From Promethearchaeia archaeon (GTDB lineage: Archaea; Asgardarchaeota; Lokiarchaeia; Sigyniarchaeales; SOKP01), in assembly GCA_029856155.1 (NCBI GenBank), contig JAHQWL010000014.1, forward strand, positions 1 through 10,292: a stretch of 10,292 nucleotides of DNA, written 5' to 3'. Within the stretch, counting starts at the first letter, position 1. Each line of letters starts with the position of its first letter. A program made the position numbers and the translations under genes. Shown here in pieces: positions 4,382 through 10,292 of this stretch. The notes beneath the pieces were generated by a model. The model saw only the letters and a list, made by a program, of their open reading frames with translations, did no database searches and was not told the DNA's origin.

Positions 4382-6205
4382 TTATAAAGATTGTGTCTTT
4401 AAGTTCTCTACAAGTTTATCTTTTAACTTTTCAATTTGTTGAAAATCATCATTTGGTATCATTTGACCTATTCGTAAAATAGAATTTATAAGTTCGGGAT
4501 CAAGGATATCTTTAATTAACTTTCCTTTTTGTGTAAGATTTTTACCCTCAATATAGAGAATAAGAATAATTTTGATTAAACCCAATAATTTTGCAGAACT
4601 AGTATGATTGTTAACCTCATCATAAGCATTTTGGATTAGAAAACCATCTTTTATCATTTTTGCTATAAAAAGGGTCAATTTTTGGTCCTCTGGTAAATTT
4701 TTATCTCCAATTAATTGAATTACATGCTTCAATTCTTGTTCTTGTGATAGAATCTCATTTACTAGTCTTCTACATTCTAACCAATCAAAATCTATCTCTG
4801 ACCAATCAATATCTCTCTCGTACCACCATTCAGCGATGAATTGTGGATAGTTTGAATATGATTCAACCCAATTGATAGCAGGATAATGTTTTAAATAAGC
4901 TAATTTTGGATCTAGTGCCCAAAAAGCTTGAACTAACCTTTTAGTAGTTGATGTAACTGGTTCACTAAAATCTCCTGCTGGGGGAGATATTGTACTCACA
5001 ATAGTTACAGACCCTTTTATTTCATGTCCTTGTTGATCTGTTGCATTTGTTTTGACAATACCAGCCCTTTCATAAAAGCCTGATAGTTTTGACGGTAAAT
5101 AGGCGGGATAACCTTCTTCTGCTGGCATTTCTTCCAATAGTCCTGAAATTTCTCTTAAGGATTCAGCCCATCTTGATGTGCTATCTGTAAGTACAACAAC
5201 ATCATAGCCCATATCTCGATAATACTCTGCTATCGTAACACCGGAAAACAAACTAGCTTCTCGTGCTGAAACAGGCATATTTGAGGTATTAGCAATAAGT
5301 ATTATCCGATCCAATAACGTTTTTCCACTTTTAAGATCAATGATTTCTGAAAATTGCTTCATGATGTTAGCAATTTCATTTCCAGGTTCACCACAACCAA
5401 TATATACTACAACATCAGCATTGCACCATTTAGCAAGCATTTGTTGAATAACAGTTTTTCCAGTTCCAAATCCACCTGGAATAGCAGTTGTTCCCCCTTT
5501 GGCAATTGGAAATAATAAATCTATAGCACGAATTCCTGTAATCAATGGTTCCACAGGATTTAGTTTCTTATTGTATGGACGCTTTTTTGTAATTGGCCAT
5601 TTTTGTAACATTGTATAAGAATTTTCATTACCTTCTACGTTTAGTCTAAATATTTCATCAATAATAGTATAATTGCCTTCATTTACAATAAAGGAGAGGA
5701 GTCCCGAGATATTAGGGGGTAGCATAATTCTATGTTCTAAAAATGAAGACTCCCTTACGGAACCAATTATTTCTCCACCTTTAACTTTATCATTAACTTT
5801 TTTTGATGGTATAAAATGCCATTTTTTAACTCTTGATAAAGAAGGATACTGTATACCTCTGTGTAGTCTTCCAGAACGTATATCTTTAAAAACATTTGCT
5901 AAAGGTCTCTGCAATCCATCGAATACATTTGAAAGAAGCCCAGGAGCTAATTCCATAGATAGCGGTTCATTTAAACTAGTTACTTTATCATATAATTTCA
6001 CGTTTGTGGTATTTTCGAAACATTGAGCAATAATATAGTCTGAGTAAATTTGGATTACTTCTCCTAAAATATTATATTTAGAAATTTTAATTAAATCATG
6101 AAGACAAATTTGATTTTCTAAACCCTTGATTTTAACTAATGACCCTACGATTGATGAAATATATCCATCATTAGCTTCCTTGTTTGTGTCGTTTTGATTG
6201 AACAT
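4382..6205 (-). CDS. atpA: A/V-type ATP synthase/ATPase subunit A (alpha chain), divergent, with a catalytic-site Arg->Pro substitution
   Basis: DGLQRPL, the non-homologous region, Walker A GGFGTGKT (5453-5476), GCGEPGNE, ANTSNMPV, DSTSRWAE, EEMPAEEGYPAYL, SPPAGDFSEPVT, HYPAINW. 607 aa, no intein. Confidence 0.95.
   Translation of the reverse strand: MFNQNDTNKEANDGYISSIVGSLVKIKGLENQICLHDLIKISKYNILGEVIQIYSDYIIAQCFENTTNVKLYDKVTSLNEPLSMELAPGLLSNVFDGLQRPLANVFKDIRSGRLHRGIQYPSLSRVKKWHFIPSKKVNDKVKGGEIIGSVRESSFLEHRIMLPPNISGLLSFIVNEGNYTIIDEIFRLNVEGNENSYTMLQKWPITKKRPYNKKLNPVEPLITGIRAIDLLFPIAKGGTTAIPGGFGTGKTVIQQMLAKWCNADVVVYIGCGEPGNEIANIMKQFSEIIDLKSGKTLLDRIILIANTSNMPVSAREASLFSGVTIAEYYRDMGYDVVVLTDSTSRWAESLREISGLLEEMPAEEGYPAYLPSKLSGFYERAGIVKTNATDQQGHEIKGSVTIVSTISPPAGDFSEPVTSTTKRLVQAFWALDPKLAYLKHYPAINWVESYSNYPQFIAEWWYERDIDWSEIDFDWLECRRLVNEILSQEQELKHVIQLIGDKNLPEDQKLTLFIAKMIKDGFLIQNAYDEVNNHTSSAKLLGLIKIILILYIEGKNLTQKGKLIKDILDPELINSILRIGQMIPNDDFQQIEKLKDKLVENLKTQSL
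4780..4821. repeat. Imperfect in-frame 21-bp tandem duplication inside atpA
   Basis: accaatcaaaatctatctctg (4780-4800) vs accaatcaatatctctctcgt (4801-4821), 17/21 identical. Encodes YERDIDW / SEIDFDW. Confidence 0.6.
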
Positions 6206-6229: not shown

Positions 6230-6658
6230 TTACGTTATTTGTTTGTTACAAAATGGACATTTTTTAACAAAATTTGGTAAAATATTTCCACAGCCTTGAC
6301 ATTTTTGAATTAAGGGGTTATGATATTGAGAATTGAGATTAATATATTTAGGTATTCTCTGTTGGTATCGTTTTTCGTCTTTTTCTCGTATCATTTTTTG
6401 TTGCTTATTAATTGAAGACTTAGGTTTTTTCTCGGGGAACATTCTTGAATATAGCGAACCTTTAGTTTGCTTTAAGAATAGGCCAATTCCAAATAATAAC
6501 AAAAAAGACAATAAAAGAATTACGATAGTTGGATTAAAATTTAAATCTATTAAGTAAAAATAAAGGAATAGGAGGATTAAGAAGTAAAAAACTAAAAGAA
6601 TAATTCGTATTTTGCTTCTTTTAGTTACATATTCATTTTCGATACTATTATTTGCCAT
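6230..6658 (-). CDS. Hypothetical membrane protein: two N-terminal TM helices plus a C-terminal C4 zinc ribbon
   Basis: Hydrophobic segments at about aa 17-37 and 43-62, a basic linker, then C120-x2-C123-x10-C134-x2-C137 (CQGC...CPFC). Gaps of 38 and 24 bp to atpI and atpA. Confidence 0.8.
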   Translation of the reverse strand: MANNSIENEYVTKRSKIRIILLVFYFLILLFLYFYLIDLNFNPTIVILLLSFLLLFGIGLFLKQTKGSLYSRMFPEKKPKSSINKQQKMIREKDEKRYQQRIPKYINLNSQYHNPLIQKCQGCGNILPNFVKKCPFCNKQIT

Positions 6659-9653: not shown

Positions 9654-10292
9654 TTACACCTTTCCAGAGTAATATTTATTAATAAAATTTTGATGAATTC
9701 TAAGTAATTGATTTTCGGTTAAATTACCTAACACGTTCCAACCAATATTAAGAGTATCTTCAAAATTACGGCTCTCATCTGACTTTTGATTCAAAAACTT
9801 TTGTTCAAAATCTGCTCCATATTTCAATAAATTCTTCTGATCATAATTTAATCCATCTTCTCCGACAATTGAAATAAGATCTTTTACTTCTAGATAATTT
9901 GAATAAGATGCTAACAATTGAGAGCTAACATCAGCATGATCCTCTCTTGTCTTTTCCTTACCAATAGCATCTTTCATTAATCTTGATATTGAAGCTAAAA
10001 CTTCAAAAGGAGGGTAGATACCTTTCTGATGTAAACTTCGACTTAAAACTAATTGCCCTTCAGTGATATAACCTGTTGTATCGGGAATAGGATGAGATAT
10101 ATCATCATTAGGCATCGTTAATATAGGTATTTGAGTTATTGTTCCCTTTTTACCTTTAATTTTCCCAGTTCTTTCGTAGATAGATGCAAAATCTGAATAA
10201 ATATATCCTGGATATCCTTTCCTGCTGGGTATTTCTTCTTTTGCGGAGCTTAATTCTCTTAATGCTTCCGCATAATTAGTCATGTCAGTTAG
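9654..10292 (-). CDS. atpB: A/V-type ATPase subunit B (beta chain), C-terminal part; 5'-truncated by the window edge
   Basis: The frame is open to the edge ([13 protein letters not shown]). Motifs [44 protein letters not shown] (arginine finger at 9981-9983), TREDH and TLNIGW. Confidence 0.96.

Follow-up and report, generated by a model that had tools for sequence, protein, structure and literature searches.

The window analysed here is a whole contig of 10,292 bp (C13) from the genome of a Promethearchaeia archaeon (G000; 4.1 Mb, 30% GC, 104 contigs), and it carries one end of an operon for an A-type rotary ATPase. Few known machines are more conserved than rotary ATPases, the heads of which are assumed to contain three identical catalytic subunits. 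We focus on the operon's last gene, which lies on the minus strand at 4382..6205 and encodes a 607-residue paralogue of subunit A, here called A'. Its open reading frame (ORF) is full length, with 607 codons and no internal stop. A distinctive characteristic of A' is a proline in place of the arginine that binds the gamma-phosphate and inorganic phosphate (Pi) in the canonical motif GCGERGNE.

Motor motifs and family membership of A'

Translation and alignment with structures in the Protein Data Bank (PDB) place the altered motif, GCGEPGNE, at residues 270-277 (5375..5398, minus strand), where positions 5398-5375 read GGT TGT GGT GAA CCT GGA AAT GAA. The proline, P274, is the CCT codon at 5386-5384, and the catalytic glutamate E273 (GAA, 5389-5387) stands directly before it. 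The Walker A motif, or P-loop, GGFGTGKT (residues 244-251; 5453..5476, minus strand) is intact. So are the Walker B aspartate D341 and R345 of DSTSR (5171..5185, minus strand), D341 lying within VVVLTDSTSRW; we take these two residues to be the equivalents of beta-D242 and beta-R246 in the LLFVDNIYR segment of Escherichia coli F1. A check of A-subunit features thus found the Walker A motif, the Walker B Asp and the catalytic Glu present and the Arg of the GER motif absent. Six residues past P274, in GNEIAN, the alignment of A', A and outgroup sequences has a further change, from Asp to Asn (N280; 5366..5368, minus strand). The first-pass annotation of the window had described a full-length subunit A with GCGEPGNE, CCT at codon 274 and intact Walker motifs, and its coordinates and codons are correct.

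The domain architecture of A' is that of a complete A subunit: Pfam finds PF02874, the A-specific bulge PF16886, PF00006 and PF22919, so that N-terminal barrel, bulge, nucleotide-binding domain and V/A C-terminal domain are all there. Against NCBIfam NF003220 the protein scores 724 bits (cut-off 470), and the TIGR01043 equivalog cut-off of 972 is missed by A' (725) and by the canonical A of the same genome (742) alike. A phmmer search of the PDB gives an end-to-end match, best to the A subunit of Pyrococcus horikoshii (E = 5e-170), followed by those of Enterococcus hirae and Thermus thermophilus and by eukaryotic V1-A (~1e-155). In the P. horikoshii alignment P274 lies opposite the Arg of GCGERGNE. 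Because of this GER alignment and the adjoining catalytic Glu, P274 is regarded as the equivalent of E. hirae R262 and E. coli beta-R182. By homology, A' is a member of the A-subunit family, though not a canonical catalytic one. It resembles the catalytic A of A/V-type enzymes (P. horikoshii 1VDZ/3M4Y, E. hirae 3VR2, T. thermophilus 3A5C; E ~1e-170 to 1e-155) in its four-domain architecture, bulge, P-loop, catalytic Glu, Walker B motif and operon context. Unlike these solved A subunits, it has an invariant Pro for E. hirae R262 and is an extra copy that sits past I, not before B.

That the lost Arg is required for catalysis is taken from studies of proteins other than A' (PMC3268026 and PMC6353620). 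In the V1 of E. hirae, the bound nucleotide contacts the P-loop Lys238, the A-subunit Arg262 and the Arg finger that B provides, Arg350 (PMC6353620). E261 and R262 of this enzyme shift upon AlF4- binding and are part of the ATP pocket (bioRxiv 10.1101/2021.12.07.471682). The E. coli F1 counterpart, beta-Arg182, is a ligand of the gamma-phosphate and of Pi (review PMC3268026), and the mutants beta-R182Q and R182K have no ATP synthesis and low ATPase activity, with Pi binding lost (review PMC3268026, citing Nadanaciva et al. 1999 and Ahmad & Senior 2005). Transition-state formation is also lost in beta-R182Q, and the binding of MgADP does not involve beta-Arg182 (review PMC3268026). These mutants lack the same GER Arg and serve as the closest experimental stand-in for A'. 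They are, however, laboratory mutants of an F-type enzyme in which all three sites are altered, whereas A' carries Pro naturally, belongs to a V/A-type enzyme and probably occurs in mixture with wild-type A.

The proline itself may matter. In an AlphaFold2 model of A', P274 is located in the turn between the strand 265-272 and the helix 277-287. Because Pro is invariant, rather than any non-Arg residue being accepted, this position in the modelled turn suggests that Pro has a structural role, in which it would fix the strand-to-helix turn with the catalytic Glu.

The ATPase operon and the distribution of A'

A whole-genome search places a second A gene of G000 on another contig (C46, 145-1983, minus strand). 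It encodes GCGERGNE and its product is 65% identical to A', so that the count of atpA copies bears out the first-pass expectation of a canonical A beside the altered one. Both copies have two family-specific features, SGLLEE and a WWYERDIDW insert; the C-terminus of A' is the shorter. The genes on C46 run DUF47-like, K, C, H, F, E and A, and then come the first 46 codons of B at the contig end. The window, at its own end, holds the C-terminal 212 residues of B (9654..10292), followed by subunit D of the central stalk (PF01813; 9015..9605), subunit I, that is, the a-subunit of the stator and ion channel (PF01496; 6697..9006), and a small gene, x (6230..6658), that lies between I and A'; all are on the minus strand. 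B, D and I were identified with Pfam and tblastn, and tblastn of the genome finds one B, one D and one I only. Because C46 ends in the N-terminus of B and C13 starts inside B, there is hardly any doubt that the two contigs carry a single operon, K-C-H-F-E-A-B-D-I-x-A', split by an assembly gap inside atpB. The possibility that A' is the sole atpA of a permuted operon is rejected, since the canonical A is on C46, which abuts C13 through the broken atpB. The context of a rotary ATPase operon holds for A', and its position there, as last gene past I, is atypical. As B, D and I are each encoded once in the genome, there is no second complex for A' to enter.

The same arrangement is found in relatives. 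In 11 other species of the window's genus the entire order K-C-H-F-E-A-B-D-I-x-A' stands on a single contig, with A and A' ~6.7 kb apart and with EndA and Memo next. The operon order with a terminal A' also occurs in genera g22, g12 and g21, and closed chromosomes are among the cases in which A and A' share a contig. In every two-copy case examined, Arg is in the upstream copy and Pro in the terminal one. When all 161 genomes of the class were scanned with degenerate codons, 75 had GCGEPGNE, never twice in a genome. All 75 belong to one family, f1 (by genus, g1 41/53, g22 26/42, g12 3/5, g21 2/10, g19 1/1 and g15 1/6), and the scan finds the motif in none of the six other families of the class. 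As an exact-motif count this is a lower bound; one A' (G116) reads CCGEPGSE. When codon 274 was left free in the scan, it was Arg or Pro only, among the matches listed. The best 115 motif-bearing database clusters at 90% identity comprise 100 with GCGEPGNE and 15 with GCGERGNE. Over 44 GTDB species the proline codon is CCT in 21, CCA in 16, CCG in 4 and CCC in 3; because all four Pro codons are in use, the residue has been held through much synonymous change. Some metagenome-assembled genomes seemed to have the Pro copy only, which would have spoken for A' being sufficient by itself; these cases were rejected, as the contigs break within A or a short way before it. In assemblies contiguous enough to tell, A' has a canonical A alongside.

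It was considered whether A' is an artefact, namely a sequencing error, a pseudogene, or a second copy brought in by contamination of the bin. The codon CCT is one step from CGT, as the first-pass annotation had cautioned, the estimated contamination of the bin is 5.7%, and both ATPase contigs are short. Against this, Pro recurs, with all four of its codons, in ~75 species genomes and in 100 protein clusters, A and A' lie on the same contig in many genomes, closed ones included, and the ORF is intact, with a ratio of non-synonymous to synonymous substitution rates (dN/dS) of ~0.1-0.15. A sequencing error is ruled out by the orthologues, in which close and distant A' all have Pro while the codon varies synonymously, and on orthologues, synteny and dN/dS together we reject all three forms of artefact, the chance of which is negligible.

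In the closed genome G006 the operon is split between D and I, and I-x-A'-EndA-Memo stay joined (...E-A-B-D at 2.19 Mb, I-x-A'-EndA-Memo at 3.05 Mb; loci L044/L045). Because of this split, expression of I, x and A' can be separate from that of the other subunits. It could be supposed that A' acts outside the head, as a free nucleotide sensor, as an assembly chaperone for I and x or in some other machine, and merely rides in the operon. The joined I-x-A' of G006 would fit such a role, and so would the place of A' at the end of the operon, past I and x, which are both membrane proteins, and a C-terminal domain and tail that are the parts least conserved relative to A. Nevertheless we regard this role as improbable: all domains are kept, including the PF16886 bulge, the B-facing segment 334-372 is 96% identical to that of A, tblastn finds no other B-like partner in the genome, and x is not specific to A'.

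Protein x, known from its sequence and synteny, has 142 residues with two transmembrane helices and a C4 zinc ribbon. It is kept across the order and follows I in the outgroup family f2 and in genomes without A', and for this reason the view that it serves A' in particular is rejected; its gene has the look of a lineage-specific accessory to the ATPase operon in Lokiarchaeia. In f2 it is found at loci L048:2803-3890 and L049:3371-4025, and one f2 member has two zinc ribbons.

Beyond the operon lies the gene for EndA, a tRNA-splicing endonuclease (PF01974/PF02778; 3758..4354, plus strand), which is convergent with A' and marks a 3' boundary of the operon conserved in synteny. Farther along, between a Memo-like gene and a gene for a PfkB-family kinase, a 375-residue coiled-coil protein is encoded on the minus strand (1578-2705), with sub-threshold Pfam matches only (ATG16, LRRFIP, AAA_13).

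The slot between x and EndA differs in lineages without A'. In f2, including closed genomes of 4.3-4.4 Mb, the order is ...A-B-D-I-x and then EndA. In two congeners of the window's organism, G012 (L169 12290-13382) and G090 (L171 6160-7366), a gene for a protein of ~345 residues stands there on the opposite strand. From its sequence we presume it to be FBPase/IMPase-like, and its presence in the slot points to replacement or loss of A' in these two genomes. In G018, a genome of the window's genus that is 98% complete, neither A nor A' as query has an A-subunit match, and its ATPase operon is either unassembled or absent. In G090 and G069 the canonical A is interrupted by ~1.3 kb between conserved blocks (L171, G090:C71, 12172-15633; L173, G069:C188, 12107-15529). 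The interruption is probably an intein in atpA, as in VMA1-type A subunits; the tblastn matches of the A' examined show no comparable gap.

Origin of A' and selection on the two copies

A first maximum-likelihood (ML) tree, built from 13 species of the window's genus and outgroups, groups the A' sequences in one clade (SH-aLRT 99). Because this clade nests with the family's own A sequences and branches internally in the same pattern as A does, the tree indicates one duplication, which would lie near the base of the A'-bearing genera. In an ML tree with more genera, the A' of g1, g22 and g21 form one clade (89), and both g12 copies are unresolved at the base. The two g12 copies are 81% identical to each other, and the A' copy still has P274, L319, V424, L438 and K502; the R/P difference thus persists even between close copies. 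An independent, convergent change from R to P in g12 is considered unlikely, since its A' has L319, V424, L438 and K502 like other A'. The data agree better with an early branching of this A' or with partial gene conversion.

The terminal branches of A' are mostly 1.5-2 times longer than those of A. Pairwise dN/dS by the Nei-Gojobori method (NG86) is 0.10-0.15 for A' and 0.085-0.12 for A, in comparisons where dS is 0.65-1.9 and synonymous sites are partly saturated. The purifying selection on A' that these ratios imply is clear, and the dN/dS comparison named as a check in the first-pass annotation has thus come out on the side of a maintained gene.

Fixed differences between A and A' are confined to only ~12 alignment columns. 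The changes R274P, I319L, F424(L/V) and S/A438L are common to the A' of all four genera examined, and D280N and E502K are found in most A'. N280 is present in 105 of 112 A', and every A and outgroup sequence compared has Asp at this position. No fixed A'-specific change adds a positive charge near the site, and D280N removes a negative one; it may be a charge compensation for the lost Arg.

Five residues, namely E273, P274, D341, R345 and F413, the adenine-stacking Phe of SPPAGDFSEPV, are invariant in 112 of 112 A', although the sequences were gathered by the motif G.GEPG.E and the invariance inside it (E273, P274) is partly by construction. Walker A is likewise invariant, apart from T251S in 4. 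In every domain A' is slightly less conserved than A. The gap is largest in the C-terminal domain (0.66 versus 0.77), and it is small in the B-facing segment from Walker B to YPAYL (residues 334-372), where conservation is 0.95 in A' and 0.97 in A.

The first-pass annotation had taken SGLLEE and a divergent N-terminal barrel as signs that A' had drifted. Neither sets it apart: the conservation of the barrel is just a little below that in A, and SGLLEE (window 5138-5143 in A') is rejected as a mark of A', as it is present in the canonical A of G000, in both paralogues throughout the family and in the A'-less genera. All f1 A subunits examined read EISGLLEE and other A subunits EISGRLEE. B subunits usually have SAAREE where the single B of the window has SSAKEE (in ELSSAKEE, ~10230-10250). 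Across the family, a conserved Arg may have been lost in coordination from A and from the homologous position of B.

Possible role of A' in the rotary head

Based on these comparisons, A' is a genuine, selected paralogue of the A subunit of the organism's sole A-type rotary ATPase; probably it binds nucleotide, is catalytically crippled, and serves as a regulatory subunit at one or more A positions in the head. The first-pass proposal of a nucleotide-binding, impaired A' working alongside a canonical A is supported, as far as sequence comparison can carry it, having come through each of the computational checks that the annotation named. By the same measure A' has the marks of a pseudo-enzyme or regulatory paralogue: its fold and interfaces are kept, a residue required for catalysis is lost, and it is under purifying selection beside an intact copy.

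The mechanism that we propose is as follows. The A gene was duplicated inside one Lokiarchaeia family, and the copy came to lie past I and x. A' lacks one of the four positive phosphate ligands, and the remaining site residues are kept. In the A3B3 ring the A subunits touch only B, so A' could take one or more A positions; because A contacts only B, and because the genome has a single B, D and I, A' is most probably found at the A positions of the normal head. The conserved B-facing segment lends such assembly indirect support. There it would bind Mg-nucleotide, ADP especially, but without Pi binding or stabilisation of the transition state, and turnover at its site would be very slow or nil. 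A head that carries A' would have fewer working sites, and the outcome could be a brake on ATP hydrolysis or altered work per turn. The position of A' past I, a subunit present once per complex, and not beside A-B, hints weakly at expression below the stoichiometric level.

The closest parallel to this arrangement is offered by the alpha subunit of F1 and the B subunit of A/V-type enzymes. Like them, A' is a paralogue of the catalytic subunit that has lost a catalytic residue and would be located in the same ring; like F1 alpha, it keeps the P-loop and presumably binds nucleotide. However, alpha and B are older than LUCA, take alternate places with the catalytic subunit and provide the Arg finger. 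In contrast, A' is a recent, family-level duplicate that would compete for catalytic positions, and it keeps the catalytic Glu.

Several observations weigh against a crippled regulatory subunit. A' is truly missing in the near-complete G012 and G090, and genera g23, g14, g16 and most of g15 have a single, Arg-bearing A, so A' is dispensable in some lineages. The AlphaFold2 model has a mean pLDDT (predicted local distance difference test) of 69 and is low in the P-loop and interface loops, and the synonymous saturation noted above bears on the estimates of selection. The catalytic Glu is strictly retained, although a purely dead subunit has no obvious need of it, F1 alpha having lost its own, and some chemistry may remain. 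This retention is the main reason why we keep open a different account, in which A' still turns over as an isoform with altered kinetics or altered affinity for nucleotide or Pi, replaces A under some conditions, and tolerates or compensates the loss of Arg. On this account the P-loop Lys/Thr, the Walker B Asp and R345 would be kept along with the Glu, as they are in the 112 A', since chemistry persists; purifying selection on A' is about as strong as on A, and the periphery of the active site is unusual in this family anyway, with SGRLEE changed to SGLLEE in both copies. We nonetheless consider a competent isoform rather unlikely. Even the conservative R182K of E. coli F1 abolishes synthesis and Pi binding (PMC3268026), no fixed A'-specific change brings a positive charge near the site, where D280N takes a negative one away, and A' does not stand without a canonical A where contigs are long enough to tell.

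A stronger form of the proposal, that mixed heads such as A2A'1B3 are the native form and have an altered ratio of ions to ATP or work as a one-way synthase, is unlikely on present grounds. With one permanently non-catalytic site, fewer ATP would be made or consumed per turn of the rotor. The ion/ATP ratio would be higher, and synthesis would be possible at a very low ion-motive force. Alternatively, hydrolysis would be stalled while rotation driven by the proton-motive force is still allowed, which would give a one-way synthase. Either effect would suit energy-starved, syntrophic archaea of sediments.

No description of A' was found in papers on rotary-ATPase evolution that sample Asgard archaea (PMC10656485; bioRxiv 10.64898/2026.10.01.756066) or by further full-text searches of open-access papers and preprints, and public records name the A' genes merely "V-type ATP synthase subunit A". 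Because A and A' carry the same label, metabolic reconstructions of Asgard archaea and ATPase phylogenies can pick the wrong copy unnoticed.

It is unexpected that an Asgard family naturally maintains, with its sole ATP synthase, a second motor subunit that lacks this Arg. Under selection and kept through the whole history of this Lokiarchaeial family, A' points to an unrecognised form of regulation, or to a re-gearing of the enzyme, in organisms that live close to what thermodynamics allows. Being recent, it also serves as a natural experiment in the gain of non-catalytic subunits by ring ATPases, a theme of the origin of alpha and B and of the paralogue-rich complexes of eukaryotes. If mixed heads are the native form, A' would moreover be a living, recent replay of the step from a catalytic to a non-catalytic subunit that produced alpha and B, in the archaeal phylum closest to eukaryotes.

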